Source: an uncultured Candidatus Saccharibacteria bacterium | Lineage (GTDB): Bacteria; Patescibacteriota; Saccharimonadia; Saccharimonadales; Saccharimonadaceae | Direction of reading: 5' to 3' | Assembly (NCBI GenBank): GCA_964536265.1 | Contig: CAZHVV010000003.1 | Location: 33,783-97,782 of the forward strand | Length of the DNA: 64,000 nucleotides | Shown: positions 10,105 to 60,373 of the stretch, piece by piece | Numbering within the stretch: the first letter of the stretch is position 1 | How the letters are laid out: each line of letters starts with the position of its first letter | Translations under genes and position numbers: made by a program | The notes under the pieces: generated by a model | Databases searched by the model: none | What the model was told of the DNA's origin: nothing | The model's input: the letters and a program-made list of their open reading frames with translations, nothing else

Positions 10105-10147
10105 GCCACTATCATATCACGCGATGAGTTGAGGTGAAACGTACGGA

Positions 10148-11520: not shown

Positions 11521-11539
11521 ATATTTTCTTATTATATCA

Positions 11540-17304: not shown

Positions 17305-18522
17305 ATGGGTTTATCAACGCGAAAATTTCAAAAGGCAAGTAGCCAGATGTACCACGGTACCAGTATTGGACCGATGGGATACCGGATAAGTGAAATGTTC
17401 GGGGGTGATGGCAACGGCTCCTGGATTAATACCCCACTGCCACCAACGGCTGCTATTCACCCTGATTCTGCGACAGCAGTCGCTGATATTGTTGAGAATG
17501 TACATAATTTCGCAACAGGAACATCCGTCATAGCTTGGCCAACACTAAACTATTCTACGTACACAGCGACGCTTAATGTCATCGATTCATCAAAAATAGC
17601 TTTGCAACCTGTCACGGTAAGCGGTGCCAACGCCTCAGCATCATGGGCCTTTCCAACGGCTGCGATGATGTACGCCGGCTTCCCGCTTCCTAGAGGGCTA
17701 CAACCAACAGATGACAGCGACGGCACAATTCACTTATATGATCCTGACTGGAAATGGCCGGGTCGCCCTAGCGATACCCAGTACTGGGGTCGAATATGGG
17801 AGCTGTGGGGCGCAAGAAGCCCTGAGCAGAACGTTGCAGCCGGCAACCCAGCCATATGGACTGCAAAAATTGGTGGTCGGCTAACAGGAGTCAATCAGCG
17901 CCTTAGTGCCCACCCTATCAACCGAACATTTCAAGCCGATGTCACAAGCCAGGCTTCGCCGAGCTACGGGGCACCAAAGGCACCGAACGACACAAGCGGC
18001 AACACAATATATTGGGGTTATGGGCCGGACGGCGTGTATGAATCCTCCGCCTGGATGGCATCAGCATCACATCTTCCCATGAGCCATCATATCTTGCGAA
18101 AAAGTGATATGGTCAATGCGACCATACCCCACCCAATGGGATTCTCACTATTTCCAATGTACCCAACTAATGAAGGAAGTAAGGGTAGCGTCTGGCCAGC
18201 AACTAGCTATGATGCCGCATCTCGTAACTGGCTCAAACACGGCAATCGTTTACGACTACCTGCAGGCTACGTCGCCTCATACCCTTCGGGTATGCCGGTC
18301 TCATGGCGACCGATGTTCGACATGTTCATAAATTGCTTTCGGGATTATGGGATAATTATGGTTGACACAACGGGCAATTCGTTCGCAATGCGCGCCGAGC
18401 CAGGGGTAGAAAGCTATTACCCAAGTGGTTTTAGCGGAAAAACGTTTATTCAATATCTACCTTGGGAAGACATGCAGATGATTGTAGTTGGTAGCGACGC
18501 CGATTTCTATCCAGGTGCATAA
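17305..18522 (+). CDS. Hypothetical protein, W/Y/P-rich, possibly carbohydrate-active
   Basis: 405 aa long ORF with coding-like composition. No family recognised and no obvious signal peptide. Confidence 0.55.
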   Translation: MGLSTRKFQKASSQMYHGTSIGPMGYRISEMFGGDGNGSWINTPLPPTAAIHPDSATAVADIVENVHNFATGTSVIAWPTLNYSTYTATLNVIDSSKIALQPVTVSGANASASWAFPTAAMMYAGFPLPRGLQPTDDSDGTIHLYDPDWKWPGRPSDTQYWGRIWELWGARSPEQNVAAGNPAIWTAKIGGRLTGVNQRLSAHPINRTFQADVTSQASPSYGAPKAPNDTSGNTIYWGYGPDGVYESSAWMASASHLPMSHHILRKSDMVNATIPHPMGFSLFPMYPTNEGSKGSVWPATSYDAASRNWLKHGNRLRLPAGYVASYPSGMPVSWRPMFDMFINCFRDYGIIMVDTTGNSFAMRAEPGVESYYPSGFSGKTFIQYLPWEDMQMIVVGSDADFYPGA

Positions 18523-18572: not shown

Positions 18573-20471
18573 TTACTTTTCGTCGACAACTTCACCTTCA
18601 ACAGGTTCGTCAGTCTTCTTGTCTGATTTTTCTTCTTTCTTCTTGCCTTCTTCTTTTTCAGATTCTTTTGCGGCTGCTTCGTACATCTTTGCACCGATAG
18701 GCATGATGACGTCGTTGAGTGCTTTGACTGCTGCTTCAAGTTCTTCCTTATCGTCAGAATCTTTCTTCTTTTCAGCTTCAGTAACGGCTTCTTCAATAAC
18801 TTTCTTGTCTTCGTCGCTTATCTTGTCTTTGTACTCATCAGGCATCTTTTTCGCCTGGTATATGGCATTTTCAAGCTGGTTCTTTGCATCGACTGCTTCA
18901 CGCTTTTTCCTGTCTTCATCGGCATGTGCTTCAGCTTCTTTTTGCGCTTTCTCGATATCCTCTTTACTCATATTGCCTGAATTCTGGATGGTAATCGACT
19001 GTTCTTTGCCAGTCCCCTTGTCTTTGGCTGTCACGTTTAAGATACCGTTAGCGTCAAGGTTAAATGTCACTTCAATCTGCGGGACACCGCGAGGTGACGG
19101 TGCAATACCGTCGAGGATAAACTTGCCAAGACTCTTGTTGTCGGCGGCAAATTCACGCTCACCCTGCAGAACATGGATTTCAACTTGTGGTTGATTGTCG
19201 GCAGCAGTTGAGAATGTTTCACTCTTGCTAGTTGGGATGGTCGTATTGCGTTCAATCAGCTTTGTTGAAACCGAACCCATGGTTTCAATGCCGAGTGACA
19301 GTGGCGTGACATCAAGCAGGAGTACGTCTTTGACATCGCCCTGTAAGACACCGGCCTGAATAGCGGCGCCAATGGCAACAACTTCGTCAGGATTTACGCC
19401 TTGCATTGGTTCTTTTCCAAAAATCTTCTTCACTTTTTCAATAACTGCCGGCATGCGTGTCATACCACCGACCAGCACAACTTCGTCTATCTCACTTGCC
19501 TTGAGGCCGGCGTCTTTGAGCGCTTTCTCGCATGGGTCAGCGGTTTTATTCACCAAATCAGCAACCAGTTCCTCAAGTTTTGAACGAGTCAGTGTGTATT
19601 CAAAGTGTTTTGGACCTTCTGCGTCTGCCGTCAGGAATGGCAGGTTAATTTCAACTTGAGGTGTTGAGCTGAGCTCTTTCTTTGCCTTTTCGGCTTCGTC
19701 TTTGAGGCGTTGCATAGCGGCGTTGTCACCTTTTAGGTCAATCCCCTGGCTCTTCTTAAACTCTTCAAGGAAGAAGTTAACAATACGGTTGTCAAAGTCC
19801 TCACCACCAAGGTGTGTATCGCCGTTGGTTGACTTCACTTCGAAGACACCATCACCAAGTTCAAGAATGGAAACGTCGAATGTTCCACCACCAAGGTCGA
19901 AGACAGCGATTTTCTCGTCTTTCTTCTTTTCAAGGCCATAGGCAAGTGCAGCAGCAGTTGGCTCATTGATGATACGCTTCACTTCTAGACCAGCTATTTT
20001 ACCGGCATCTTTGGTCGCTTGACGCTGTGAGTCGTCAAAGTATGCAGGTACAGTGATAATAGCCTCTGTAACAGGTTCACCCAAGAACGCTTCAGCGTCG
20101 GCCTTCAGCTTACTAAGAATCATTGCTGAGACTTCCTCTGGTGTGTAATCTTTGTCACCCATCTTTACTGCTACGCCACTGCTATGTTTGACTATTTCAA
20201 ACGGCATAATGTCGAGGTCTTTTTGGACTTCTTGGTCTGCAAATTTACGGCCAATCAAGCGTTTGACACTATAAATAGTGTTCTTGGCGTTCGTAACTCG
20301 CTGACGCTGGGCAATCTGCCCAACAATACGCTCGCCTTTTTTCGTGACCGCCACAACACTTGGTGTTGTACGGTTACCTTCTGCATTCGCGATAACCTCA
20401 GGCTTACCTGCGACCATGTAGGCCATGGCGCTGTTTGTAGTACCCAGGTCGATTCCGATAATTTTACCCAT
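18573..20471 (-). CDS. dnaK: Molecular chaperone DnaK (Hsp70)
   Basis: 632 aa: [27 protein letters not shown], and a K/E-rich C-terminal tail. Confidence 0.97.
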
Positions 20472-20638: not shown

Positions 20639-22078
20639 TTAACGATACTGGCCTAAGACGTCGATTTGACCAGTTGTGCCACGAAGCGAAGAGAACCGGT
20701 AGTAGCCTGTATCTTGAGAGATATCGCTATTTCGTTGAGTAATAGATGAAGAAATAGTTGCGACAGTCTGAGTATTTCTCACTGCAGATGCAGACTGCAC
20801 ACCGAGCTGTGCAGGATATGCTGCAATACTCATACCAGCTGGTGCCGTGTACGTATAAGTACTACCACCACTAGTGATAGTAATATCAGCTGGAGCTACC
20901 AAAAACGTCAATGCCTCAACATAATTCCGTGCGGCCGACATAGAACCGCGTGGCCATTGGCTCATCGGCAGAGTGGTTGACCCCGTGATAGTGGCATCTA
21001 AAGTCTGCGGGCGATGAGAAAGGTAGATACAATCACGCAAGATTGTTGGATACTGACCTGTTTTCCACTTTGTTATGTAGTAGGCTGATATATCGAGATT
21101 TACCCACCCATTGCATGCCGATGGCGCCATAGGTGTCTCAGAAAAATCTGACCACGTCACCATCTGTACGTAGTCAGCGTTTTGTCCAATTGCCTTCTCC
21201 CACGCAGCACGTAAACTCCCTGTGTTGAGAGCTTCATCCCATAGCTGGGCTGGAGGACGGATATCTTGCGAGACTACTGGTGCCATGAATTTTTCCCCCC
21301 GAGCTAAGGCTGCGGGCTGGTAGTTACCTGCCGCATTTATCACACTCGGGTCTGCACCATATCCCCACACCGACGAAGCATAGCACAAACCAGTGTAGTT
21401 CGGAGCTTGATTCCAGTTAAGATAAACTGAGAAAAAGGCAATGTCAAGCCCCCAGGTCGTCAGCAGTTCATCAAATACCTGCTGCCACCACAAATATGTT
21501 TTGCCTTCTGTTAGGAAAGACCCAACAACGTAGCGCCCATCAGGCAAATAGTACGATCCGTTCTTGCCTGCATATTTTCTGATATGGTCCGCTGCCACTT
21601 GTGGAGTAGCAGCACCTGTGGCACCATTTGCGTCGACCATTGGCAGGACATAAAAACCAACATTCATATCATCAGCTGCCTGAACTAATTTCATATAGCG
21701 GTCGTAGTTAGAGCCTGATAATCCCAGAAGGTCACAGAAGAATCCATCAATCCCAGCCGCTTGTGCCTGTTCAATGTCCCAGACAGCATCTAAATACGTA
21801 TAGTCGCCGCCACGTTGCGGACGCCAAATGGGTCTATCGCGATACATACCACCATAATCTTGATACGTGGCATAATTAGGATTGTTGAATGCAGTCGTAT
21901 ACGAATCGGTTGCAAGCGTCACACTATCGTTCAACGAGCGAGGGTACGGTCCGAAATAGTGTGCGAAGACTTTTTTCGAGCTGCTATTCAGAACAGCATA
22001 ATCCATCGCGAACGGCAACCCTTCTGTCGCTTGCTGTCGAGTTCCTACCCTCTGCAACCTACGCGCACCTATACTCAT
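20639..22078 (-). CDS. Glycoside hydrolase family 71-like (alpha-1,3-glucanase / mutanase-like)
   Basis: 479 aa. The motif order matches my memory of GH71 mutanases: KKVFAHYF, AQAAGIDGFFCDLLG, FMAPVV, VQMVTWSDFSE, and the C-terminal ITITSGGSTYTYTAPAG block. No signal peptide was seen. Confidence 0.6.
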   Translation of the reverse strand: MSIGARRLQRVGTRQQATEGLPFAMDYAVLNSSSKKVFAHYFGPYPRSLNDSVTLATDSYTTAFNNPNYATYQDYGGMYRDRPIWRPQRGGDYTYLDAVWDIEQAQAAGIDGFFCDLLGLSGSNYDRYMKLVQAADDMNVGFYVLPMVDANGATGAATPQVAADHIRKYAGKNGSYYLPDGRYVVGSFLTEGKTYLWWQQVFDELLTTWGLDIAFFSVYLNWNQAPNYTGLCYASSVWGYGADPSVINAAGNYQPAALARGEKFMAPVVSQDIRPPAQLWDEALNTGSLRAAWEKAIGQNADYVQMVTWSDFSETPMAPSACNGWVNLDISAYYITKWKTGQYPTILRDCIYLSHRPQTLDATITGSTTLPMSQWPRGSMSAARNYVEALTFLVAPADITITSGGSTYTYTAPAGMSIAAYPAQLGVQSASAVRNTQTVATISSSITQRNSDISQDTGYYRFSSLRGTTGQIDVLGQYR

Positions 22079-22614: not shown

Positions 22615-23328
22615 TTATAGCACTTCTTCGAGCATTGCACCTGTATGGCGAACGAGTCGCATAACACGTGCATAGTCCTGCCGCGTTGGGCCGAGTACAC
22701 CTATGTAGCTACCGTCTGAATATGGTGAGCAAAAACGGCTAATGATAAGGCTTGCTTGTGAGCTTTTACCTATCGGATTCTCGGCACCAATAAAGACATT
22801 GAGTGGCTCGTTTGGCGCAGCTTCACGAAGCCATGGCTCAAGGTTATCTAACAGGCTGGCAATTTGCTGAACATTGTGCGGATTGGTTATGAACTCTGGC
22901 TGAGAAAATAAGTTACCCATACCACTGATATATAGCTGGTCGCCAATGGTTGCAAGACCAAGATTGTGTGTCACTTCAGCCAAACTGTCAACAGCGCTAC
23001 GAATCGCACGGTCAGTTCTATCACCAAAGGTCGCAACTCGCGCGTCAATCGCTCTCGTACTGCGATCGGCTAATTGCGGTTGCTCTGTACCTCGTAAGTC
23101 ACCGAGCTGGTTCACGTAGTACCGATACCCCTTGTCAGTAGGGACACGGCCAGCACTGGTGTGCGGCTGCATGATGAGGTCAAGTTCTTCTAGCTGGGCC
23201 ATCTCGCTACGAATCGTAGCACTCGAAACTCCAAACAGCTTCGCAAGCGTCACGCTGCCGACTGGCACCGCCACCTCTGCGTACTGTTCGATGATTGCCG
23301 CAAGAATTCTAACCTGGCGTTCTGTCAT
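22615..23328 (-). CDS. hrcA: Heat-inducible repressor HrcA (short, ~237 aa)
   Basis: MTERQVRILAAIIEQYAEVAVPVGSVTLAKLFGVSSATIRSEMAQLEELDLIMQPHTSAGRVPTDKGYRYYV is a winged helix of the HrcA type. The start is chosen at ATG 23328. Confidence 0.85.
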   Translation of the reverse strand: MTERQVRILAAIIEQYAEVAVPVGSVTLAKLFGVSSATIRSEMAQLEELDLIMQPHTSAGRVPTDKGYRYYVNQLGDLRGTEQPQLADRSTRAIDARVATFGDRTDRAIRSAVDSLAEVTHNLGLATIGDQLYISGMGNLFSQPEFITNPHNVQQIASLLDNLEPWLREAAPNEPLNVFIGAENPIGKSSQASLIISRFCSPYSDGSYIGVLGPTRQDYARVMRLVRHTGAMLEEVL

Positions 23329-23334
23329 ACTGGT

Positions 23335-23364
23335 AGTATACCGTAAATTGGCAGTCTCCGTCAA
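23335..23364 (-). promoter_or_regulatory. Candidate hrcA promoter, leaderless
   Basis: On the minus strand: TTGACG, 18 nt, TATACT, then 6 nt, then ATG 23328. Confidence 0.5.
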
Positions 23365-23387: not shown

Positions 23388-25634
23388 CTATGGGCCAAAT
23401 GGGTCTACAAGACTGACGCCCGAAACCATAAAACCTGTTGCGCCTTTGCCGCGCGCCGTGGACACGGCAGTCATATCAGGACAGATATGCCCTGTCATAC
23501 GCTGACCATTCGTGCGATAACCTGCAAGCGTATCCCAGTCTCCTTGAGAAGCGTTGTAATCCATACCTATAAGTGTCCACTGATTTACGTATCCAGAGGT
23601 AAGTGAAGCGATGTCACTTGCATAAAAATAACCCCAGCGTTGATACCCTCGGTTCGCAAATGAGGTAGCAAAGGAAGTACTACCAACACCGTATGCCTTA
23701 CCAATAAAACGTTCATTACCTCCGTAGGAATCAAGTATATCGAGCAGTTCCTCGCGATACGTATTTGCATACTTAACGTCAACAATAAATAGATGATGGG
23801 CATAAGCGTCCAGTATGTCCTCGAGACGCGCATATGGACGGTTTGGCTGTGTGGTATTGTTCGCAGCCATTGAACCAAGTACTTGATACCCCTGGACTGT
23901 CGCCCACGTCATCGTTGATGCCGCAGGAAGTCCAGATGTGCCGGACGTGCGATTGATATCAGCGTCGTGTAGACCAAACCACACACCATCGGAAGTGCGT
24001 GCAAGCGACAATTCAAGGCAGCCAAAGCTGAGTAGGCCCGACTGTCCATAGGCAAATGCTGTCATTTCTGGAAAATCACGGCTTCCACCACGGTGAGCCA
24101 TATAGAATTCTGGTAATGCAAGCATGTCAGAAACTGTCGGATATCGCGGCAACATCTCACGCATACCGCTAATCTGCGTTAATATTCCACCAGTATCACC
24201 AACGCGGACATAGGCGTCCGACAAGATACCGCCCGTATCACCGAGTTTCGCCGTATAATCAGGTGGTAGCGTCCCTGTCGGACGAAATGCGACCGACAAC
24301 GCAACGGGTGCGGAAGGCGTCCCCGTCCATGCAATGTCAGTTTCCGTCGACCCGACTGTCGAAGCTGAGCCGGTGAGAGTACGAGAGCCGAGCCACATAT
24401 ACGTACGCGACGTAGATGCAACTAATCCTGCAGTTGCTAGTTCCGCAACGTTAGTAAAATTATCCGGGTAATTGGAGGGAATATGGTCATTTGTAGCAGT
24501 AAACTCACTCGCTGAAAACTCGAGAACAAGCGCCGGATCATTGGCAGTATATGACGGAATTGTTCTTCCGTTTGTTATGCCATCACCAGTTATGGAATTA
24601 TAATAGCCAGTCCATGCCGGATCTGCACCTCGTACAAGAAATAACGCACCCACCATTCGTGCCGTCGCGCCGACTGTAAAAGTATATGATACTGGCTCTG
24701 TCCCGGTGATTTCGTGCGTAAAAAAGCCAGTCACGCGTGCGGCACTGGAACTAGGACTAAAAGCAGGTCCAACTCGTGTAAAGGCAGCGTTTGTCCAATC
24801 CGTCGCAGATCCAGTTGCTTGTGACCGAAGTGCTGCAACCAGCAAATCCCCCGTCTGATAACCACTCGGTACTGTCAATGTAATCGTCGTGCTACTAGCT
24901 GTGACAACAGCGGTCTGAGCGGCACCCACAATAGTTGGTGCACTTGATGGCGGCACTATAATCGGTTCTAGCCAAATATGCCCAGCAAGACCATTATTGG
25001 TCTGTGGGTTTGGGTATGTCCAAGTAGTATTCCCCGATGAACCCGTAGCGGCCAACGTGTTATCGGCGATGCTCACAATCTGATCACCACCCCCGACAAC
25101 ATAAAATCGCTTTGTCATGGAATTATCGACAACAATATCCGTATCAATTTCAGCTGCCACAGTACGTTCAGTTGAAATCGACACCACGACTGAGTTAGCG
25201 GCCGTTGTCGTTACCGATGGTGCGATATTGGTAGTTGTCGTTGCATGACCATTGCGATCCCAAAAAACCCCTGCATACGCAGCCGAAACGCCACTGTACC
25301 AAACTAGCCGCCAGAACACTGAATAACCCGTTCCATCAAGCGGCCATGTATAACTAGTTTCACCAATTTCACGCCGTTTCATCCATACACCAGTCTGAAA
25401 GGCTGTCGTACCAGTCATAGGTGCAAATGAACGCACAATTGTCCAACCACTCAAATCACCAGGATAGTTAGAATCCACAGGTGCAGCACCGCCTGTGAAA
25501 ATAAGAATCATCCAATCGCCAACATTACATGCTACACCACCGGACCCACTGCCTCCGAGATTGGGGTTAATATCTACACTTGCAGTATCTACGGTAGTTC
25601 CACCGTAGCGATATCCGCTAAATACTACTGCCAT
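23388..25634 (-). CDS. Large tail-protein-like protein with a C-terminal glycerophosphodiester phosphodiesterase (GDPD) domain
   Basis: 748 aa. The N-terminal part has two similar ~220-aa beta-rich regions. The C-terminal part has EFYMAHRGGSRDFPEMTAFAY...CLELSLARTSDGVWFGLHDADINRTSG, matching the GDPD HRG...E...HD pattern. Confidence 0.65.
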   Translation of the reverse strand: MAVVFSGYRYGGTTVDTASVDINPNLGGSGSGGVACNVGDWMILIFTGGAAPVDSNYPGDLSGWTIVRSFAPMTGTTAFQTGVWMKRREIGETSYTWPLDGTGYSVFWRLVWYSGVSAAYAGVFWDRNGHATTTTNIAPSVTTTAANSVVVSISTERTVAAEIDTDIVVDNSMTKRFYVVGGGDQIVSIADNTLAATGSSGNTTWTYPNPQTNNGLAGHIWLEPIIVPPSSAPTIVGAAQTAVVTASSTTITLTVPSGYQTGDLLVAALRSQATGSATDWTNAAFTRVGPAFSPSSSAARVTGFFTHEITGTEPVSYTFTVGATARMVGALFLVRGADPAWTGYYNSITGDGITNGRTIPSYTANDPALVLEFSASEFTATNDHIPSNYPDNFTNVAELATAGLVASTSRTYMWLGSRTLTGSASTVGSTETDIAWTGTPSAPVALSVAFRPTGTLPPDYTAKLGDTGGILSDAYVRVGDTGGILTQISGMREMLPRYPTVSDMLALPEFYMAHRGGSRDFPEMTAFAYGQSGLLSFGCLELSLARTSDGVWFGLHDADINRTSGTSGLPAASTMTWATVQGYQVLGSMAANNTTQPNRPYARLEDILDAYAHHLFIVDVKYANTYREELLDILDSYGGNERFIGKAYGVGSTSFATSFANRGYQRWGYFYASDIASLTSGYVNQWTLIGMDYNASQGDWDTLAGYRTNGQRMTGHICPDMTAVSTARGKGATGFMVSGVSLVDPFGP

Positions 25635-25638
25635 AGTA

Positions 25639-27183
25639 TTAGGCCCTCATGACGTATAACGTACCGTATAGTGGCGTTGTTACATCCGCAAAGTCATCGA
25701 CAACCTGCACAGTATTTGTAATGCCTAATGTTGTGCGTGCCGCAGTCGCATCCGCTGCGGTCAACACCGCCCTACCCGTTACCGAACTGTCACTTATATC
25801 CGTCGCAACATGTGTATGGGCTGAAGCTGCTTTGCCGTCAAGCGTTGTTTGGAGATTTGTCGTGTCAGCAATAGTATGGCTATGCACAGCGGCGGCATAT
25901 GAGCCAGCAACCTGTTTCCCATCAAGCGCTGTTTGAAGTCCAGTTACATCTGAAATGGTGTGGCCATGCACAGCGGCGGCATATGAACCAGCGGCTTGTT
26001 TGCCATCGAGGGCTGTTTGGAGGCCGGTTGTATCTGAGATAGCGTGAGCATGAGTAGTCGCCGCTTTACCGTCAAGCGTGGTCTGAAGATTTGTGACGGT
26101 TGAGATTGCCTGTACACCGGTATGGTTGGTGCGATCAAGCAAGGTAACATCGCTACTATTTGCAGTTGCACCGGTTGCAATACTATTCAGTTTGGTTTTA
26201 TCGGCGGCTGACATCACGCCAGCATCGGTTACCGTTGCACTCGCAACAATTGCATCATTGCCAGTACTACTGACAACTGTTACGTCAGTGCTAGTGGTCG
26301 TTACACTTAGGTCGGTCACACCAGCACCTGGCGTAGCCGCTACTGTAGTAGTACCTGCGTTATCGTCATATGTAAGCGTCACATTTGTGCCAGCGACTAA
26401 ACTTGTGCCTATAATATCTTGAGTTGCCTCAGTAAAGTCAGTGATATCGGTTGCAATATGGCCATGCACAGCGGCGGCATATGAACCAGCTGCTTGTTTG
26501 CCATCGAGGGCTGTTTGGAGGCCGGTTGTATCTGAGATAGCGTGGCCATGAACAGCTGCTGCATAGGAGCCGGCTGCCTGTTTGCCATCGAGTGTCGTTT
26601 GAAGGTTGGTGACATCGGCTATTGCGTGAGCGTGTGAGGTATTGGCTTTGCCACTAAGGCTGGTGTCTACTTCTGTCTTCGTATAGGTTGTGGATTGGTT
26701 TGCTTTGCTATCAAGTGTCGTTTGGAGATTTGTCGTGTCAGCAATAGCATGGCCATGCACAGCTGCGGCGTATGACCCGGCAGCTTGTTTGCCATCGAGG
26801 GCTGTTTGGAGGCCAGTTGTATCTGAGATAGCGTGAGTATGTGAGGTATTGGCTTTGCCAGCGAGACCAGGAACGGTTGGAGATGCAGCAGTACCGCCAA
26901 GGTCACCTGTGAGCTGAACGATACCTTTGGTTGAAGAGGTGGCATCGGCAACGGTGCCTCCACTACCAGCATTAAGTTTTGCTTGAACTGTACTATCCAG
27001 TTTAGCTTCTGTGATAGATGCGTCGGTAACGGCAGCACTATCTACCGCCCCAGGAGCAAGTGATGCAGAGGTTATAATACTATCCTTAAGAGTACCATCG
27101 GCATTATGAACCGCCGAGAGGTAGTCGTTGAGGATCTGTCCCCAAGTGCCCGAGTCTGATCCCGGTTGTGGTAATCGCGGCAT
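25639..27183 (-). CDS. Phage-tail-fibre-like repeat protein (9 HxH repeats)
   Basis: It starts MPRLPQPGSDSGTWGQILNDYL (ATG 27183, RBS GGGAAGGG). It has repeats of the type SHTHAISDTTGLQTALDGKQAAGSYAAAVHGH and a SAADKTKLNSI motif. Confidence 0.7.
   Translation of the reverse strand: MPRLPQPGSDSGTWGQILNDYLSAVHNADGTLKDSIITSASLAPGAVDSAAVTDASITEAKLDSTVQAKLNAGSGGTVADATSSTKGIVQLTGDLGGTAASPTVPGLAGKANTSHTHAISDTTGLQTALDGKQAAGSYAAAVHGHAIADTTNLQTTLDSKANQSTTYTKTEVDTSLSGKANTSHAHAIADVTNLQTTLDGKQAAGSYAAAVHGHAISDTTGLQTALDGKQAAGSYAAAVHGHIATDITDFTEATQDIIGTSLVAGTNVTLTYDDNAGTTTVAATPGAGVTDLSVTTTSTDVTVVSSTGNDAIVASATVTDAGVMSAADKTKLNSIATGATANSSDVTLLDRTNHTGVQAISTVTNLQTTLDGKAATTHAHAISDTTGLQTALDGKQAAGSYAAAVHGHTISDVTGLQTALDGKQVAGSYAAAVHSHTIADTTNLQTTLDGKAASAHTHVATDISDSSVTGRAVLTAADATAARTTLGITNTVQVVDDFADVTTPLYGTLYVMRA
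26761..26955. repeat. 195-bp segment identical to 28111-28305
   Basis: Base-by-base comparison by eye. Both copies lie inside paralogous fibre-like genes and encode ...ADATSSTKGIVQLTGDLGGTAASPTVPGLAGKANTSHTHAISDTTGLQTALDGKQAAGSYAAA. Confidence 0.9.
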
Positions 27184-27199
27184 AGTATAACCCTTCCCT

Positions 27200-27676
27200 T
27201 TACGTAAAGTTGAGGCCAACGAGCGAGCCGAACCAAGTCGTACCGCCGTCGAGCGTTTCGAACACTAGGATATCAACCGCGTTTGCAGCTGTAGAAAGTG
27301 CCGGTGCACCGCCTGACCACTTAACACTGGCTGGCCACGTAACAACTCTGCCCCCAGTCGCATCTTGTTTTAAATAGAGTGAGAACGAACAGGCTTTACC
27401 ACTGGTCGCTCCGCTGAGCACGAAAGTCGTTGTGCCTGTTAGTGTCATATTAAAAACATTAGCATTTGCAAGATTAAGTGTTGTCGTCCCAGTAGCATTG
27501 GCGGTTGAGACTGTCTCAAGACCACCACTGGTCGCCATCGCAACCATCCCAATCGGGTTCGAATTATTCCATTTGCTTGTTGTGCTATTGAATTTCAGCA
27601 AATCACCACTGGATTGGCCCGACATGAAAACGTCTGTTGCGCTAGATATCGTACTTCCTGTTCCGCTAAATGGCAT
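27200..27676 (-). CDS. Small tail-associated-like protein (module B N-terminus)
   Basis: 158 aa. MPFSGTGSTISSATDVFMSGQSSGDLLKFNSTTSKWNN is homologous to the start of the 152-aa proteins at 59907 and 62491. The C-terminal part has YLKQDATGGRVVTWPASVKWSGGAPALS. Confidence 0.6.
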   Translation of the reverse strand: MPFSGTGSTISSATDVFMSGQSSGDLLKFNSTTSKWNNSNPIGMVAMATSGGLETVSTANATGTTTLNLANANVFNMTLTGTTTFVLSGATSGKACSFSLYLKQDATGGRVVTWPASVKWSGGAPALSTAANAVDILVFETLDGGTTWFGSLVGLNFT

Positions 27677-27690
27677 ACTTTATGTCCTTT

Positions 27691-29181
27691 TTATCGATAC
27701 CAGTTGATTCCATCACTCCAATAATCGCGACTATCGTATTGGTTATTGAGTGTATCCGTACCAACGGCTACAGCATCGATGTATGAGCCACCTGGCGCTG
27801 CAACCTGCAATCCATTACCAGCTGCACTCAGCCGCTTGACTCTGACGAGACCGTTCGCAACTGGTGAAGGTAGAGTAATCGTTATACCAGTGCTCGTCGT
27901 GTCAACAAGCATACAGTCATTGTTCGCTGCAGTCGCTGAAGCAGTATTGATAGAGCGGAAGGTAAACGTATATCCTCCCCCGCCCCCACCTGCAGGTGTT
28001 GCCCATGTACCATCACCGCGTAGGTAGGTGGTGCCATTTGCCGTACCTGAACCAAGCCGGGCAGTCGCTACTGTGCCAGACGTGATATCTGCAGCAGCGT
28101 GAGTATGAGTAGCTGCGGCGTATGACCCGGCAGCTTGTTTGCCATCGAGGGCTGTTTGGAGGCCAGTTGTATCTGAGATAGCGTGAGTATGTGAGGTATT
28201 GGCTTTGCCAGCGAGACCAGGAACGGTTGGAGATGCAGCAGTACCGCCAAGGTCACCTGTGAGCTGAACGATACCTTTGGTTGAAGAGGTGGCATCGGCA
28301 ACGGTAGTAGTTGGTAGTTGAGCAGTAGGTACTTTACCTGTGCCGTCAAGTGTAGCCACACCATTTACAGCACCCTTCTGGGATGCATCAAGCTTCGCAC
28401 TCAAGCTTGTAGACAGGCCAGTGACACTTGCTTGAGGCAAAGAGCCACCCATATTCGCAAGGTTGAAGTTAGCTTCACTTACATCAAGTGCTATGCGGTC
28501 ATTCGCAACATCGTTCGTAACCGTCACTTTAGTTGAGGCGGCCCCTATACTGCGTAGCTCGAAATTAACGCCAGTTTTCTGTTTGTAAACTCCAACGCCA
28601 GTACCAATGTTGCTCGCTGTGTTTGCTTCGCCACCGCCACCAGCCGCAGGTGCCGTAATCCACTCGAAGCCCGTACCGTTGTAGCTAAGGAGTTCGCCTG
28701 TTGCAGGAGCATCAGAATTGAGCTGAGCAGGAATAAGACTACCGTTTGGCACTGTACCGGATGCATTGAGTTTTGCTTGCGCAGCAGCGTCAAGTTTTAT
28801 TTCTGTAATCGAACCGTCAACTATCTTTGTTGTCGTAACTGCGTTGTCGGCAAGCTTCGTATCAGTTACAGCAGAGCCAGCAAGCGCAGTCGTATCGACA
28901 GCACCCGCAACAAGTTGTGCATTTGGGATAGTACCCGACAAATCACCACCAAGCGCACCACTGACTGTATTGAGCTTTGCCTGCGCGGACGCATCAAGCT
29001 TCGCTTCGGATATACTGCCATCCGATACAATTGACGCGTCAACCGCACCAGGCGCAAGCACGCTTGTCGTGACAATATTATCTTTCAGTGAACCATCAGT
29101 CTTGTGTGATTGGGTAAGGAAGTCATTGAGGATTTGCCCCCAAGTGCCCGAGTCTGATCCTGGTTGTGGTAATCGCGGCAT
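27691..29181 (-). CDS. Phage-tail-fibre-like protein (module A N-terminus)
   Basis: 496 aa starting MPRLPQPGSDSGTWGQILNDFL. It has HxH repeats and TYLRGDGTWATP. The RBS is AAGAGGAGGAG. Confidence 0.7.
   Translation of the reverse strand: MPRLPQPGSDSGTWGQILNDFLTQSHKTDGSLKDNIVTTSVLAPGAVDASIVSDGSISEAKLDASAQAKLNTVSGALGGDLSGTIPNAQLVAGAVDTTALAGSAVTDTKLADNAVTTTKIVDGSITEIKLDAAAQAKLNASGTVPNGSLIPAQLNSDAPATGELLSYNGTGFEWITAPAAGGGGEANTASNIGTGVGVYKQKTGVNFELRSIGAASTKVTVTNDVANDRIALDVSEANFNLANMGGSLPQASVTGLSTSLSAKLDASQKGAVNGVATLDGTGKVPTAQLPTTTVADATSSTKGIVQLTGDLGGTAASPTVPGLAGKANTSHTHAISDTTGLQTALDGKQAAGSYAAATHTHAAADITSGTVATARLGSGTANGTTYLRGDGTWATPAGGGGGGYTFTFRSINTASATAANNDCMLVDTTSTGITITLPSPVANGLVRVKRLSAAGNGLQVAAPGGSYIDAVAVGTDTLNNQYDSRDYWSDGINWYR
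28111..28305. repeat. 195-bp segment identical to 26761-26955
   Basis: See the partner entry. Confidence 0.9.
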
Positions 29182-29267
29182 TAGTATTCTCCTCCTCTTA
29201 TAATTCTATGTTAGATCTCTTATAACGTATATCGGATTTATATAAAATCGGTGAAAAACGAAATTCA

Positions 29268-29480
29268 TCATGAATTTGTTGCTCGGCCACCATAGGTGCT
29301 GGCGCCATAACCCTGGTTACTGCTTTTTGATGTATCACTTAATTTCCCCAAATTACCGAAAGACTGCAATAAGAAGCCACCACCTGCAACAAATAGGGCC
29401 ATTGTTGCAACGTGTTGCAAGAACTCCTTACGGTTCATTTCCTTTTGTAGAAGTGTGTTGAGTGCTGCTGGTGTCTTCAT
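29268..29480 (-). CDS. Small protein with a Tat-like (RK) signal segment
   Basis: 70 aa. NRKEFLQHVATMALFVAGGG resembles S/T-R-R-x-F-L-K followed by an h-region. The tail is G/S/Y-rich. Confidence 0.45.
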   Translation of the reverse strand: MKTPAALNTLLQKEMNRKEFLQHVATMALFVAGGGFLLQSFGNLGKLSDTSKSSNQGYGASTYGGRATNS

Positions 29481-29568
29481 TTTTTTGTACTCTTTTTTTG
29501 GGTTTTTAATAGGTATACAGTTAGATTGTATCCAAGCCGGAATTAAAAAGCAATAGCTTTTTACAATT

Positions 29569-30615
29569 TTATGACATTATGATGAAACCATCGAGCGAAC
29601 GCGACATCGATAACTGAGGTGTGACGGACCGTGCTGACTGACGACGTGGCGCGACCGGCTGCTTCGGTCGATACGAAATAGAACGTTCCGGGTACCGTAT
29701 GTGGCGCTGCGCTACAAGCATACCGTCAACACTTCGAGGTTGCTGTGATATTACAGCAACAGGTAGTTGAGGCGCAACTTCTCGCAAGACAGGTATTGGG
29801 CGCGTACCTATCGCAGGTGCTGCCTGCTCTACGACAACTCGCGATTGTATGACACCATGTTTCTTACGACGATGCCTTACCCACAGAAGCACGATGCCAA
29901 TTTGGTACATAACTACCATTGGTGAGGCGAGCAGCGCTTGATTGAGTGCATCGGGCGTTGGTGAGATAAGAGCAGCAATAATGAATGAGCCTATCAGGAT
30001 ATGCCCCTGGTATCCCATCAACTTCTTTGGAGGCAATGGCGTAGCGGCATCGGCAATCATCATCACAAGCGGTATCTGGAACAATAGCGCACCTGCAAGC
30101 ATGTACGTCATAATGAACGCAAAGTATGAGTCAATCGTCAGCATTGGGTTGATATGGTACAGGTCAAAGCCAGTCAAGAAATACAGTGCGGCTGGCAAAC
30201 TAACGACATACGCGAAGGCAATCCCTGTTAGCGCCAACACGAACGATGCGACCGTGTAGAGCAATACGCGCTTGATATGTACCTGTTTCATAACTGGCAT
30301 AATGAATCGATAAAAATGATAGATAATAACAGGAAGTGAGGCAATGAAGCCAATATACATACAAACTTTTATAATGAAGCTGAACGCACCACCAGGCGTG
30401 AGATAGACGAGCTCGTTATCCTTGCCAAGGGGCGCAACTAACAGGTTGACGATTTTGTCAAAAAACGGATATGCTGCTGCCGAAAAAACAACAAATGTAA
30501 TTGCGACAGCAAAAAGTCGACCCTGCAACTCGCGGACGTGGTCCATAAAAGTTGGCAGGGTCGTCCGATTATCTATAGTCAGGTTATGACTTTTTTTCTG
30601 TTTCTTTCGTCTCAC
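29569..30615 (-). CDS. tatC: Twin-arginine translocase subunit TatC with a ~100-aa C-terminal extension
   Basis: MDHVRELQGRLF...six TM segments. The true start may be ATG 30546 (MDHV), since the longer form overlaps tatA. Confidence 0.85.
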   Translation of the reverse strand: MRRKKQKKSHNLTIDNRTTLPTFMDHVRELQGRLFAVAITFVVFSAAAYPFFDKIVNLLVAPLGKDNELVYLTPGGAFSFIIKVCMYIGFIASLPVIIYHFYRFIMPVMKQVHIKRVLLYTVASFVLALTGIAFAYVVSLPAALYFLTGFDLYHINPMLTIDSYFAFIMTYMLAGALLFQIPLVMMIADAATPLPPKKLMGYQGHILIGSFIIAALISPTPDALNQALLASPMVVMYQIGIVLLWVRHRRKKHGVIQSRVVVEQAAPAIGTRPIPVLREVAPQLPVAVISQQPRSVDGMLVAQRHIRYPERSISYRPKQPVAPRRQSARSVTPQLSMSRSLDGFIIMS

Positions 30616-30760
30616 TTGATTTGTCGTCCTTCATCGCTCCACGCAATTCTTTTGCAGATGAGCCGATGCTCTTCGCTAACTCTGGCAACTTCTTTGCTCC
30701 AAAGAGTAATAGCAGAATAACCAAGATGACAATTAGTTCTGGTGCGCCAATATTGGGCAT
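30584..30760 (-). CDS. tatA: Twin-arginine translocase subunit TatA/E (58 aa, below the track cut-off)
   Basis: My own translation reads MPNIGAPELIVILVILLLLFGAKKLPELAKSIGSSAKELRGAMKDDKSSETKETEKKS. The RBS is AAGGGAGAA. Confidence 0.8.
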   Translation of the reverse strand: MPNIGAPELIVILVILLLLFGAKKLPELAKSIGSSAKELRGAMKDDKSSETKETEKKS

Positions 30761-30796: not shown

Positions 30797-30824
30797 AGTA
30801 TAATGCTAGTGTATAGAAAGTCAA
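30797..30824 (-). promoter_or_regulatory. Candidate tatA promoter
   Basis: On the minus strand: TTGACT, 16 nt, TATACT. Confidence 0.4.
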
Positions 30825-30834: not shown

Positions 30835-31053
30835 ATGTATTATAAACATCTATCACAATTCGCCGACACCTACGACTGCAGTACGTATGGGTCTGGCTCG
30901 TTCAACGTAGACGAAACGTGTACAACAACGACTGGTGTTGACCTTTCTGCTACTGGCACAAACATTGCCATTGGCGCAGGTATAGGTCTTATCTTGATTG
31001 TTGCCGCAATCGTAATGCTTGTTCGACTTCGCAAGAAGAGTGTAAAGAACTAA
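30835..31053 (+). CDS. Small protein with a sorting-signal-like C-terminus
   Basis: 72 aa ending ...DLSATGTNIAIGAGIGLILIVAAIVMLVRLRKKSVKN. That is an LxxTG-like motif, a hydrophobic span and a basic tail. Confidence 0.45.
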   Translation: MYYKHLSQFADTYDCSTYGSGSFNVDETCTTTTGVDLSATGTNIAIGAGIGLILIVAAIVMLVRLRKKSVKN

Positions 31054-32828
31054 TCGCGTTTCAACATGACTGCAAAGGCATCCGACGGGATGTCAACTTT
31101 GCCAAAGCGCTTCATGCGCTTTTTCCCTTTGGCTTGTTTTGCTAATACTTTCTTTTTTCGGCTTACATCACCCCCATACAGACCAGTTGTGACGTCTTTC
31201 CGATAGGCCGACAAGTCCTCGCGCGCAATAAATCGAGCACCAATTGCCGCCTGCAGTGATACTTGAAAATTCTGTCGCGGAATCACGTCTTTCAGCTTTT
31301 TGACAACGTCCCGACCTAAGCTCAGGCTCTCCGACCGATGCGTCATAATACTGAGTGCATCAACCATTTCTCCTGCCACATAAAAGTCAACTCGTACGAG
31401 ATCTTCTTCTCTGTACCCTGACAGCTCATAATTGAAACTGCCGTAGCCACTAGTAACACTTTTGAGTTGGTCGTAAAAATCGGTCAGAAGGTTGGCAAGT
31501 GGAGCCTCAAAGCTTACGAGCGTACGCTCATCGATATAACTTAGATTTTTCTGACGTCCTCGCTTATTAACAATCAACTGCAAGACACCACCAAGATAGT
31601 TTTTCGGCACAATAATTTCACCATTTACCCATGGCTCAGCAATTGTTGTAACCGTGCTCATGTCCGGTAAATCGGATGCGCTCTTGATATCGATAGTTTC
31701 ACCAGTTGTTTTCGTAACAACATAATCAGTTGAGGGATTGGTGATGACAAGATCAAGGTTATATTCTCGCTCAAGCCGTTCACGGACAATATCCAAATGC
31801 AGTAGTCCAAGAAAGCCAACTCTGACGCCAAAACCAAGGACTGGCGAATTTTCCGGTTCATACTGCAGAGCGCTGTCACTCAGTGTCAGTTTTTCAATAG
31901 CATCCTTGAGATCTTGATAGTGCTCGTTTGAAACAGGGAAAAAACCCGCGTAAACAAATGGTTGGACGTGTTTGTACCCCGATAGAGCGGACGTGGCGTG
32001 AGCACGGCGGACAGTGACGGTATCACCAACTCTTGCCTCACGTGTGCTTTTGAGATTCGTCACGATATAGCCGATTTCTCCAGTTGCAATATGCGCCTTC
32101 GCTTCCATCGCTGGACTAAGGGCACCTACTTCAAGAGCAGAGCCATGCGCACTTGTCGCGAGCATCTCAATCGTGTCACTCTTATTAATAGATCCGTCAA
32201 TAACTCGAACATACAGTATCACACCTCGGTAGTCATCATAATAGCTGTCAAATATCAGTGCCCTTGTTGGCTGGTCAGCCACACCACTTGGCGGTGTCAC
32301 TTGTGCGATAATCTCGTCGAGCAATTCAGCGACGCCCTGTCCCGTCTTGGCACTAATCTTCAAAATGGAGGCTGGGTCACAACCGAGTAAACTGACAATC
32401 TCAGCGCTCACACGTGTGACATCGGCGGCAGGTAAATCAATCTTGTTAAGAACCGGGATGATTGTCAAATCAGCCGCAAGTGCAAGATATACATTAGCAA
32501 GTGTTTGAGCCTGAATACCTTGCGACGCGTCAACCACCAGAACAGCCCCTTCACAGGCCTGCAAGCTTCGACTGACTTCATAACTGAAATCCACGTGTCC
32601 TGGCGTGTCAATTAAGTTCAGTTCATAGCCTTTATAGGCCATACGTACAGGGGCAAGTTTAATCGTAATCCCCTTCTCTCGCTCAAGGTCCATACTATCA
32701 AGCAGCTGGCTCTTCATGTCTCGCTTCTGCACCGTTCCCGTCAGCTCTAATAGCCTATCTGCGAGTGTACTTTTTCCGTGATCAATATGGGCAATGATAC
32801 AGAAATTTCTGATATGGTCTTGTTTCAT
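31050..32828 (-). CDS. lepA: Translation elongation factor 4 (LepA)
   Basis: 592 aa: IRNFCIIAHIDHGKSTLADRLL, DTPGHVDF, NKIDL, and the LepA C-terminal domain. Confidence 0.95.
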   Translation of the reverse strand: MKQDHIRNFCIIAHIDHGKSTLADRLLELTGTVQKRDMKSQLLDSMDLEREKGITIKLAPVRMAYKGYELNLIDTPGHVDFSYEVSRSLQACEGAVLVVDASQGIQAQTLANVYLALAADLTIIPVLNKIDLPAADVTRVSAEIVSLLGCDPASILKISAKTGQGVAELLDEIIAQVTPPSGVADQPTRALIFDSYYDDYRGVILYVRVIDGSINKSDTIEMLATSAHGSALEVGALSPAMEAKAHIATGEIGYIVTNLKSTREARVGDTVTVRRAHATSALSGYKHVQPFVYAGFFPVSNEHYQDLKDAIEKLTLSDSALQYEPENSPVLGFGVRVGFLGLLHLDIVRERLEREYNLDLVITNPSTDYVVTKTTGETIDIKSASDLPDMSTVTTIAEPWVNGEIIVPKNYLGGVLQLIVNKRGRQKNLSYIDERTLVSFEAPLANLLTDFYDQLKSVTSGYGSFNYELSGYREEDLVRVDFYVAGEMVDALSIMTHRSESLSLGRDVVKKLKDVIPRQNFQVSLQAAIGARFIAREDLSAYRKDVTTGLYGGDVSRKKKVLAKQAKGKKRMKRFGKVDIPSDAFAVMLKRD

Positions 32829-42418: not shown

Positions 42419-43095
42419 CAGTTCACTGCTGCCGTATAAACCACGTCGTTTTCATACACGTCGGCAGCGACAGTATTGCCATCAATACATACGCCAAACC
42501 ACACATCTGTCATGGCATTTGTCGCAGCGCTATTCGACGAAACGACGTATGATGGTGTACTCGCAACTGGTACGCCAGCAAATGCCGGAGTAGGGATTGC
42601 CCCACCAGCTAAGGGAGTTGTTGGGCCGATACCAAAGGTACCAGCATCCACCCGATATCCCCATGTGTTCGCTGTTAGCAGTGCTGGAGACGCAACAGTC
42701 CCCGATGAAGCAGGAATCGTCGCACTGTAATTAACCCCCGTCAGATTCGTATCAGTCCCTGGCACGGACACCGTTACCGAATATCCAGTACTCGAGAGTG
42801 TCGACACCGTAAGTGTATCGCTCCCAACGCTACAAATAGTTGGGTATTGGGTCGATTCTGTCATCGCAAGACCAATCGAACCATTTGATGCAATTGAAAT
42901 ACTGCACGTATTGTATTGGCACGTGCCATAGCTTCCCTCGCTGTACGCCAGCGCAGATACTGTATGGGTTGTAGAACCGTACACCAGCAAACCCATACCA
43001 CATAGCACAAGACCGAACGCAAACAAAAGGCCACTGTCATATGCGTGGCGTAGTGAAGACATCACCTCGTTCATTCGTGTCCCTTTTATATTCAT
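42418..43095 (-). CDS. Secreted/anchored beta-rich protein, possibly WxL-like
   Basis: 225 aa with an N-terminal TM/signal segment and T/S/G-rich beta strands. It is coupled to the next gene (TGATG). Confidence 0.35.
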   Translation of the reverse strand: MNIKGTRMNEVMSSLRHAYDSGLLFAFGLVLCGMGLLVYGSTTHTVSALAYSEGSYGTCQYNTCSISIASNGSIGLAMTESTQYPTICSVGSDTLTVSTLSSTGYSVTVSVPGTDTNLTGVNYSATIPASSGTVASPALLTANTWGYRVDAGTFGIGPTTPLAGGAIPTPAFAGVPVASTPSYVVSSNSAATNAMTDVWFGVCIDGNTVAADVYENDVVYTAAVN

Positions 43096-60365: not shown

Positions 60366-60373
60366 TGAGTAGT

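Follow-up and report, generated by a model that had tools for sequence, protein, structure and literature searches.

Phage receptor-binding-type genes at a conserved site between tatAC and hrcA in Saccharibacteria

Introduction

The systems closest to the locus reported here come from phage adsorption, wall metabolism and protein export. In the phages T4 and CBA120, the domains of gp10 and gp9 (T4) and of TSP4 (CBA120) serve for the docking of other fibres or spikes, and GlpQ of B. subtilis is a teichoic-acid exo-hydrolase of phosphate scavenging. Hitch-hiker export by the twin-arginine translocation (Tat) system is known from the E. coli pairs HybO–HybC and DmsA–DmsB; to our knowledge, the known Tat hitch-hikers are redox enzymes and not fibres. 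Here, we analyze a block of four genes (p496, p158, p526 and p748) for fibre-like proteins and a phage-type glycerophosphodiester phosphodiesterase (GDPD). The block lies behind tatA, tatC and the small gene p70 in a 64,000-nt stretch of DNA (the window) from an uncultured Candidatus Saccharibacteria bacterium.

Phage GDPDs are baseplate-associated enzymes which act on the host wall during adsorption, and a host prophage that encodes such a baseplate enzyme binds and infects TM7x (PMC13578794). This infection is therefore a route for gene flow, giving actinophage genes physical access to Saccharibacteria. Host-wall glycans matter in Saccharibacterial binding, and type IV pili make the first contact; the close-range adhesins and the host receptors have not yet been identified (PMC11623550). 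In our search of the literature on Saccharibacteria and Patescibacteria, neither the locus nor its fibre family was found described. On balance, we lean towards the reading that the block is a domesticated, vertically inherited phage receptor-binding module of an epibiotic Saccharibacterium, used for contact with the host envelope, and not a prophage.

Layout of the locus

The open reading frame (ORF) map gives the minus-strand order tatA, tatC, p70, p496, p158, p526 and p748, and agrees with the order, the shared direction and the flanks (lepA and hrcA) that were read in the first-pass annotation of this DNA. The features are as follows.

lepA, 31050-32828: upstream flank of tatA
tatA, 30584-30760, minus strand: 58 aa; Pfam TatA_B_E, E 2.4e-17
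tatC, 29569-30615, minus strand: 348 aa; Pfam TatC, E 7.9e-47; TIGR00945, 139 bits, over the cut-off
p70, 29268-29480, minus strand: small Tat-associated protein of 70 aa with a Tat motif; NCBIfam NF038009, 53 bits
p496, 27691-29181, minus strand: fibre-like; Pfam PTR, 28.7 bits
p158, 27200-27676, minus strand: small, tail-fibre-tip-like; phrog_9017, E 1e-20
p526, 25639-27183 (ATG start; ORF to 27219), minus strand: fibre-like; Pfam PTR, E 1.3e-42
p748, 23388-25634, minus strand: β-sandwiches and GDPD barrel; Pfam GDPD, 34.9 bits
hrcA, 22615-23364: flank, downstream of p748 in the minus-strand order

Downstream of p748 the order is hrcA, grpE, a GH71 gene and dnaK, and lepA and murJ lie upstream of tatA. 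The gaps measure 14 nt between p496 and p158, 16 nt between p158 and p526 and 4 nt between p526 and p748. The second of these requires p526 to start at the internal ATG at 27183, as the upstream TTG start overlaps p158; the spacing of 4-16 nt first read for the large genes holds only with the ATG start and fails with the TTG. The ATG most likely is the start, because the predicted N-terminus then equals that of p496 (MPRLPQPGSDSGTWG). A sigma-70-like site (30797-30824; promoter-like match 10/12) is positioned immediately 5' of tatA, and terminator-like hairpins were not found in the intergenic gaps from tatA to hrcA. The AT-rich spacers of 86-88 nt that flank p70 could hold promoters, and p496 is preceded by a strong ribosome-binding site, GGAGG.

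All of the motifs that had pointed to phage receptor-binding proteins (RBPs) are present: HxH with DxTxLQTxLDGK in p526 and p496, SAADKTKLNSI in p526, TYLRGDGTWATP in p496 and QDATGGRVVTWPASVKWSGG in p158. The four large proteins also lack a Sec or Tat signal, as first noted, with a Kyte–Doolittle 15-residue maximum of at most 1.41 within residues 1-60.

Structure and relatives of p748

Relatives were compared in ~20-kb regions around homologs (labelled L001 and so on), and the gene contexts of p748 and p496 in relatives are drawn from these homologs. p748 is composed of a first β-sandwich (residues ~1-230), a second β-sandwich (~234-455) and a C-terminal GDPD TIM barrel (~500-748; nt 23388-24137). 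The AlphaFold2 model has a mean predicted local distance difference test (pLDDT) value of 76.8. Pfam GDPD (PF03009) matches with 34.9 bits against a cut-off of 23.6, and phrog_17803 matches over the full length (6e-55). The best Foldseek match in the PDB is B. subtilis GlpQ (5t9b; template-modelling (TM) score 0.77, E 9e-14), and the central spike of the staphylococcal phage phi812 (9eul) and gp155 of the staphylococcal phage K (9f5m) are also matched. In BFVD, the best matches are Microbacterium and Clavibacter phage GDPDs, and the sandwiches then match minor tail proteins of Gordonia and Mycobacterium phages. In the barrel region, H514, R515, E523, E541, H556, D619 and K621 are invariant among 25 homologs.

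p748 matches 64 phage records, and the 63 that have a genus name are all actinophages (Microbacterium 56, Clavibacter 5, Streptomyces 1 and Actinomyces 1; one record is without a genus name), with 30-36% identity over residues 256-745. In the Microbacterium phage RubyRalph, the p748-like gene is located amid virion structural genes. Two further contexts are viral: L172 is a temperate siphophage with a GC content of 63% in which a p748-family GDPD ends the tail module and a tape measure and an integrase are present, and L011 is a viral contig with such a GDPD beside terminase and portal genes. Outside the Saccharibacteria, the nearest relatives of p748 are structural proteins from high-GC phages, those of Microbacterium and Clavibacter among them. 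Within L011, the GDPD gene region (9926-12001) has a GC content of 0.47, which is near Saccharibacterial values, against 0.54-0.57 for the contig, and its barrel shares 49% identity with that of p748. These values hint at transfer between phage and Saccharibacteria, in either direction.

Since the closest solved structure is GlpQ, p748 may be considered as an enzyme of the cell's own envelope, with the fibres as a coat and the GDPD recycling the cell's own glycerol-phosphate polymers or scavenging glycerophosphodiesters, without host recognition. The reduced metabolism of Saccharibacteria makes scavenging enzymes plausible, and p748 evolves at a housekeeping-slow rate (see below). However, the barrel is fused to two phage-type β-sandwiches, and p748 is in every case preceded by a fibre that bears the corresponding conserved tail. 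Structural phage proteins, and not the metabolic GlpQ or UgpQ, are its relatives, and its identity to GlpQ is only ~20%. In addition, the cassette swaps and the 38%-identical allele at one site, described below, suggest diversifying pressure from a partner surface, and other family members bear depolymerase-type domains typical of RBPs. We therefore regard a purely self-directed role as unlikely.

Fibre-like proteins p496, p526 and p158

p496 consists of a conserved N-terminal head-piece (MPRLPQPGSDSGTWGQILNDFL), β-helix-type 'xxAxIxxxKLxxxAV' repeats, HxH/PTR repeats and a C-terminal β-sandwich (residues ~405-496). p526 has the same head-piece, is formed mostly by PTR repeats (seven) and ends in a conserved C-terminal tail (…GRAVLTAADATAARTTLGITNTVQVVDDFADVTTPLYGTLYVMRA). 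Pfam PTR (PF12789; cut-off 27) scores 144 bits in p526, where it occurs 7 times, and 28.7 bits in p496, and DUF5907 (PF19264) reaches 24.6 bits in p496, under its cut-off of 27. p158, p496 and p526 each match tail-fibre families in PHROG; for p158, the match to phrog_9017 (tail fibre protein; E 1e-20) covers the full length, and tail-fibre PHROGs also match its C-terminal half. The C-terminal half of p158 is matched by 457 phage records from many hosts, and p158 relatives carry the annotation PF26209 Phage_phiTE_241_C. Judged from these profile matches, the phage-protein resemblance of the block is statistically solid. A PDB sequence search gave nothing useful for p496, p158 and p526.

The AlphaFold2 monomer of p496 has a mean pLDDT of 63; the shaft is mostly below 60, as an elongated fibre is expected to model poorly, and the C-terminal domain reaches ~95. 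Foldseek matches this domain to baseplate proteins of the Klebsiella phage KP1 (E 1.6e-5), to the N-terminal fragment of CBA120 TSP4 (3e-5) and to T4 gp10 in 5iv5 (E 8e-4), with weaker matches to gp9 (1qex) and gp10 (2fl8) at E ~0.02-0.03. The modelled domain thus has the fold of the T4 gp10 and CBA120 TSP4 docking domains. The first-pass annotation had named structure prediction as the way to look for fibre or RBP-like folds; both the structure models and the profile matches reveal folds of RBPs, docking domains and baseplate enzymes in the block.

The genes recur in pairs. A fibre with the p526-type tail '…GRAVLTA.DA…NTVQVVD.FADVTTPVYGTLYV.RA' is paired with a GDPD gene in the window, L008, L009 and L010, and a p496-type fibre is paired with p158 in the window, L001, L007, L008, L092 and L128; in L010, p158 adjoins a fragmented p496. 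The N-terminal 75 residues of p496 and p526 are 69% identical. On the minus strand, a 195-nt tract is identical between p526 (26761-26955) and p496 (28111-28305), and mismatches begin only outside it, with no adenine bias. Because of the identity of this tract, the comparison indicates recent gene conversion between the two genes. A diversity-generating retroelement target was rejected, since the window shows no reverse transcriptase and the mismatches are not adenine-specific.

In a scan of viral contigs with p496, matches begin only at about residue 107 and lie mostly in the repeats (~220-400), and few reach the C-terminal domain; the head-piece was left uncovered and no close full-length viral relative was found. 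Matches to cyanopodovirus tail fibres were rejected as relatives of the head-piece, as they fall in the 'xxAxIxxxKIAD' repeats.

Conservation of the chromosomal site

The relatives of TatC and LepA are Saccharibacterial metagenome-assembled genomes (MAGs), and among those with a name the closest bears the label Ca. Saccharimonas aalborgensis (LepA 76%, TatC 50% identity). The locus between tatAC-p70 and hrcA is found in L001, L006, L008/L147, L010, L171 and others, at least six other Saccharibacterial lineages, and LepA identity among the lineages sharing the site is 76-85%. The gene content in relatives is as follows.

L008/L147 (492-kb contig): lepA-gmk-tatA-tatC-p73-p442-p151-p489-p760(GDPD)-p216-p396-p565(PKD)-hrcA-grpE-dnaK
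L006: p70 and the p496 ortholog, followed by p396 and the PKD protein alone
L001: p70, a p496 homolog and a p158 homolog
L010: p496 fragmented; p158, a short fibre and the GDPD intact
L171: p70, a 198-aa collagen-like fibre with the shared head-piece and a GDPD 38% identical to p748, at the same site
L009 (Nanoperiomorbaceae MAG): a fibre and GDPD pair (65% identity), distant from any tat gene

Thus, p158, p526, p748, p396 and the PKD protein are present or absent depending on the relative. Between syntenic genes, identity is 73-74% for p748, 70-84% for hrcA, 71-74% for grpE and 49-56% for TatC, and residues 1-367 of p496 share 78% identity with the syntenic L006 gene at a nonsynonymous distance (dN) of 0.14. 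The dN of p748 (0.19-0.28) is that of hrcA and lepA, and since the synonymous distance (dS) is saturated, dN/dS is below 0.1. p748 and the N-terminal part of p496 therefore appear to evolve as slowly as hrcA and lepA, under purifying selection. Full-length p748 orthologs form 29 clusters with 65-82% identity.

The GC content at third codon positions (GC3) of the block is 0.40-0.46, and GC3 and synonymous codon usage are within the housekeeping range. A foreign composition was rejected: the slightly higher GC content of the block stems from its Ala/Gly/Thr-rich proteins, and GC3 is genome-typical.

These data bear on the alternative named in the first-pass annotation, that the block is a decayed prophage tail module whose leftover fibre genes drift without function. 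All four proteins do have phage tail-fibre or structural homologs and, like phage proteins, lack secretion signals; moreover, gene content varies between relatives. Against this stand the shared chromosomal site, the full-length ortholog clusters, the housekeeping-like dN with dN/dS below 0.1 and the genome-like codon usage and GC3. No flanking direct or inverted repeats of the kind expected at prophage boundaries were found, only internal fibre repeats, and no tRNA adjoins the block (the nearest is ~13 kb away or farther). The comparison of relatives, which had also been proposed, shows the block kept at the tatAC–hrcA site, and no integrase, att repeats, particle genes or other phage modules were found there. 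Pseudogenisation in relatives, which the first-pass annotation listed as counting against its idea, was not seen, with the fragmented p496 of L010 as the sole exception. Conserved synteny, slow change and the ortholog clusters therefore exclude a drifting remnant to the extent that we give a decayed prophage very little credence.

Head-piece family

The block is not the only site of its kind. Whereas the first-pass annotation saw no other phage genes in the 64 kb, the window contains two more fibre-family loci.

40289-41446, minus strand: third head-piece protein, 385 aa, with HxH repeats; Pfam DUF5907 28.8 bits; matches to PHROG minor tail protein families
59907-60365, plus strand: 152-aa fibre-family protein with a p158-type N-terminus (MPFTGAGTGIQNADDVFFSG…KWNN); identical copy at 62491-62949

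The block is therefore one site of a dispersed and expanded family. The duplication of the 152-aa gene covers 59835-60365 and 62419-62949 on the plus strand, i.e. the gene and ~70 nt upstream, and its copies enclose two genes, 60329-61414 and 61411-62370, the latter with a weak K319L-like PKD match. This exact duplication could be real or an assembly artefact. Upstream of 40289-41446 are co-directional envelope-type proteins at 41531-42418 (295 aa; signal peptide and C-terminal membrane anchor) and 42418-43095 (225 aa; N-terminal hydrophobic segment). The 295-aa protein has weak similarity (23% identity, E 4e-7) to a 360-aa protein of L151 that precedes a p70-like/fibre pair.

With residues 1-60 of p496 as the query, an exhaustive search (E <=1e-3) gave 4,512 representative clusters, counted together whether from Saccharibacteria or phages. 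Among the best 150 of these clusters, the head-piece always occupies residues 1-60, and the proteins range in length from 87 to 1250 aa. Pfam domains in 90 of the best clusters include DUF5907 (11), pectate-lyase-like β-helix (10), PTR (8), GDSL/SGNH esterase (8), collagen repeats (7) and the lactococcal-phage domain BppL_N (6), and polysaccharide deacetylase, GDPD, BNR and Mtd_N occur 1-2 times each. By these annotations, the domains of the family are the repertoire of phage RBPs and depolymerases. Six Streptomyces phage records hold proteins beginning with the head-piece. L171 has more head-piece genes at 13612-14466, between grpE and dnaK, and at 18716-18868, just past dnaK; therefore, the entire lepA–dnaK region serves as a landing zone for the family.

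The proteins of the block could also be the receptor-binding parts of a phage-like particle (a tailocin, a gene-transfer-agent-like particle or another) whose other genes lie elsewhere, or they could be cytoplasmic fibres and enzymes freed by lysis. The lack of export signals is consistent with this, as the fibres would fold in the cytoplasm like phage fibres; the head-piece and the gp10/TSP4-type domain are baseplate- or RBP-attaching parts in phages, and the 64 kb examined belong to a contig of at least 105 kb. However, as the first reading had it, no gene for a capsid, portal, terminase, tape measure or integrase was recognized in the translations of all window ORFs and in targeted family scans, the PHROG scans covering selected window ORFs, and lysis genes were likewise not seen in the window. 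Sheath, tube and baseplate proteins were absent from the window ORF translations and from the Pfam annotations of relatives, and PHROG scans of selected ORFs gave fibre-type matches only. No tape measure, baseplate or distal tail genes lie near the block in the window or in the contexts of relatives, which also lack capsid and lysis genes. The fibre island of L007 gave only fibre-type matches in a PHROG scan, in which tube, sheath, baseplate and capsid were not found. Furthermore, the family is spread over several loci per genome beside housekeeping genes, and our literature search found no such particle described in Saccharibacteria. A particle or lysis origin is thus improbable in our estimate. 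An anti-phage defence system was also tried and rejected, as PADLOC gave no significant matches.

Proposed function

The observed homologies, folds, conserved synteny, purifying selection and cassette variation suggest the following model for a domesticated receptor-binding module. p496 and p526 would be elongated, probably trimeric fibres, with the common head-piece as the attachment or targeting end. The gp10/TSP4-type C-terminal docking domain of p496 probably bears p158, the small fibre-tip protein, and the conserved C-terminal tail of p526 would pair with p748, in which a lectin-like double β-sandwich is fused to the GlpQ-type phosphodiesterase; trimerisation and these pairings are proposed from gene adjacency and domain analogy. 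The assembly, surface-displayed or released there, most likely would bind envelope glycopolymers of a Gram-positive (actinobacterial) host. p748 would then cut glycerol-phosphate polymers, for example teichoic or lipoteichoic acid, which could expose the wall, strengthen the contact or free glycerol-phosphate. The locus is a cassette site, in which the anchor ends are kept and the distal parts are exchanged, and this pattern fits a host-specificity determinant.

The first-pass annotation had proposed domesticated fibre-like adhesins or enzymes for contact with the host. The domestication is backed by structures, synteny and selection; the host-contact part we infer from the epibiotic lifestyle, which makes binding or processing of a host envelope the most likely use.

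Several points weigh against the proposed function. The Asp of the GlpQ E-x-D motif, one of three Ca2+ ligands, is an invariant Ser (Ser543) across the p748 family, so that the activity and the substrate of p748 are uncertain. Since the four proteins lack Sec and Tat signals, a cytoplasmic or lysis-released fate is possible. The fibre shafts were modelled as monomers only, at the low mean confidence given above. Finally, likeness to actinophage proteins is no proof of an actinobacterial host, because such phages can infect Saccharibacteria, as the host prophage of TM7x does; likeness alone does not identify the host.

If the favoured reading of a domesticated host-contact module holds, the locus provides conserved candidates for host recognition and grip: an anchor end, a shaft, a docking domain, a tip and a phosphodiesterase for glycerol-phosphate polymers. 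The cassette pattern could explain the host range of ultrasmall epibionts of the candidate phyla radiation (CPR; Patescibacteria). Three partners would be linked, with proteins of host phages as working genes in the epibiont.

The tatAC–p70 neighbourhood

In the tatC product, the TatC domain (residues 25-232) is followed by a C-terminal extension of ~110 residues. This extension (~233-348; nt 29569-29920, minus strand) ends in a conserved R-S-x-D-G-[FIM], which is also found in L001 and twice in L002. p70 begins with LLQKEM-N-R-K-E-F-L, continues with a mildly hydrophobic Gly/Ala-rich segment (Kyte–Doolittle 2.05) and ends in GYGASTYGG. Its N-R-K-E-F-L-Q is the RK variant of the twin-arginine consensus, and relatives have D-R-R-x-F-L-K or D-R-K-x-F-L-K. 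The family shares LLxKxMDR[KR]xFLKH, the Gly/Ala-rich segment and a C-terminal GYGxSxYGG, and no obvious A-x-A cleavage site is present in p70. The match to NF038009, 'twin-arginine translocation system-associated protein', covers positions 5-67 of 70 with its 53 bits, under the cut-off of 100; TIGR01409 gives 15.6 bits on a p70 relative, under its cut-off of 16.7.

A word-indexed search with p70 gave 3 matches, and a pattern scan of metagenomes was used for the family. It comprises 78 metagenome loci in 31 sequence clusters; among loci whose flanks are long enough, nearly all adjoin tatA/tatC, with p70 either following tatC or preceding tatA. In roughly half of the lineages, the direct neighbour of p70 is a fibre-family or GDPD gene, mostly co-directional, with divergent (L131, L135) and convergent (L153) exceptions. 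The gap from p70 to the fibre is 0-30 nt in several relatives, and in L151, which has no tatAC within 10 kb, the fibre start overlaps the stop of the p70-like ORF. The L093–L127 group has the order hrcA-grpE-tatA-tatC-p70-fibre-dnaK; the tatAC-p70-fibre unit therefore stayed contiguous through rearrangement.

From these gene neighbourhoods, folded fibres might be exported via TatAC, hitch-hiking on or tethered by p70. This tentative route, which we rather doubt, would be consistent with signal-less proteins that need to fold in the cytoplasm, with the gene neighbourhood and with the retention of Tat. Some findings speak against a functional Tat link. Of the tatAC-p70 loci, about half lack an adjoining fibre gene, and fibre or GDPD genes also occur elsewhere, as in L007, in L009 and at 40 kb and 60 kb in the window. 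At least 5% of the window genes belong to the fibre family, so that chance adjacency is not negligible, and the compared lineages are related and not independent. As p70 matches a curated Tat-system-associated family, it may be a Tat component and not a carrier.

The same findings support a positional explanation, in which the lepA–dnaK region is a permissive insertion site and any export is independent of Tat and p70. In L002, different, unannotated genes follow tatAC-p70; fibre-family genes also lie beside truB (L007) and around dnaK (L171), and the GH71 gene is inserted between grpE and dnaK in the window. A survey from 2018 reported Tat to be rare among Saccharibacteria (PMC6031116), against a very large head-piece family. 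On the other hand, the tatAC-p70-fibre unit is contiguous despite the rearrangement that places hrcA-grpE upstream of tatA, fibre and GDPD genes adjoin p70 in several orientations, and the overlap in L151 and the very short gaps in several relatives also count against it. Tat is, moreover, the one pathway known to export partner proteins that are folded, oligomeric and without a signal. We judge the positional explanation to have about an even chance.

A broader proposal would be that Saccharibacteria turned host-phage fibres and a wall-degrading baseplate enzyme into a host-docking organ which is exported folded via TatAC, with p70 first carrying and then tethering it. As a whole, this is improbable; if true, it would explain the retention of Tat in a reduced genome and the strictly N-terminal head-piece on thousands of depolymerase-type proteins. 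The locus raises the question of how phage-type fibres and enzymes that form a large family and lack signals leave a monoderm-like cell, and whether Tat with p70 is the route.

On the opposite strand upstream of tatA, a protein of ~70-80 aa is encoded in the window (30835-31053, plus strand), L001 (9567-9791), L002 (9076-9324) and L010 (5880-6086). The versions from the window, L001 and L002 combine a pair of Cys and YG-rich motifs with a sorting motif of the LSATG/LAGTG type, a membrane segment and a basic tail. Weak NCBIfam matches are to LAVTG/LAXTG sortase-dependent small surface proteins.

Other features of the window

The GH71 (α-1,3-glucanase-type) gene between grpE and dnaK (20639-22078, minus strand) encodes no signal peptide, and at this position relatives carry a gene for a CDP-alcohol phosphatidyltransferase or different genes. 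Its N-terminus 'MSIGARRLQRVGT' resembles those of two unrelated L001 proteins ('MFTRRLQRVSY' and 'MSIASRRLFRTQY') and of the window ORF 17305-18522 ('MGLSTRKFQKASS'); these proteins may share a short N-terminal tag. Two high-GC ORFs, 52098-52493 (plus strand; GC 0.61, GC3 0.75) and 57745-58251 (minus strand; GC 0.56, GC3 0.68), are candidates for recent foreign acquisition, and the region of 54.4-57.6 kb has an unusually low GC content of 0.37-0.43. A further surface protein is probably encoded at 4666-6243 (minus strand): its 525 aa include a signal peptide, a match to a lamin-tail domain, the repeat 'CP.G..RNPATNRCR' in four copies and a membrane anchor at the C-terminus. A stretch of 4.2 kb contains three tRNA-Met(CAT) genes (43185-43261, 46571-46647 and 47286-47361).

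Comparison with known systems

The actinobacteriophage 'phosphoesterase' or GDPD proteins (RubyRalph gp32, ValentiniPuff, Clavibacter CN1A/CMP1; PHROG 17803) share with p748 the combination of a β-sandwich and a GDPD barrel. The phage genes are virion structural genes, whereas p748 is chromosomal, between tatAC and hrcA, with no phage around. p748 also has an extra N-terminal β-sandwich, is conserved as a Saccharibacterial ortholog and is always preceded by the conserved-tail fibre. The TIM barrels of the phi812 spike (9eul), phage K gp155 (9f5m) and GlpQ (5t9b) match p748 with TM scores of 0.75-0.78 on the target, and the catalytic positions (His-Arg, Glu, Glu and His) are conserved; however, identity is ~20%, and the Asp of E-x-D is Ser throughout the p748 family.

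In the branched complexes of CBA120 TSP1-4 and T4 gp9/gp10, docking domains resemble the C-terminal domain of p496, and a tight string of RBP genes and shared N-terminal anchors are likewise found. The differences are that the docking-type domain is C-terminal on the p496 fibre, that no baseplate is encoded nearby and that the complex proposed here is putative.

Tailocins and domesticated tails are, like this block, phage-derived RBPs kept on the chromosome under selection for the cell's own use. Tailocins have a sheath, a tube, a baseplate and a lysis cassette, none of which was found here, where the genes are scattered among housekeeping operons; tailocins kill competitors, whereas the presumed use here is attachment to a host. 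Compared with the Tat hitch-hikers, the locus offers a small protein with R-R/R-K-x-F-L and a mildly hydrophobic segment, p70, next to signal-less neighbours that would fold before export. In contrast to the hitch-hiker systems, p70 is almost without a mature domain (~30 residues ending in GYGxSxYGG), and it stays under the NF038009 cut-off.

Phage fibres kept by bacteria, as in tailocins, and phage baseplate proteins bearing a GDPD are already known. New is the presence of free-standing RBP-type genes, without particle genes, at a fixed housekeeping site in a CPR epibiont. Also new are the combination of ortholog-level conservation with cassette variation, the very large head-piece family and the recurrent tatAC-p70 neighbourhood.

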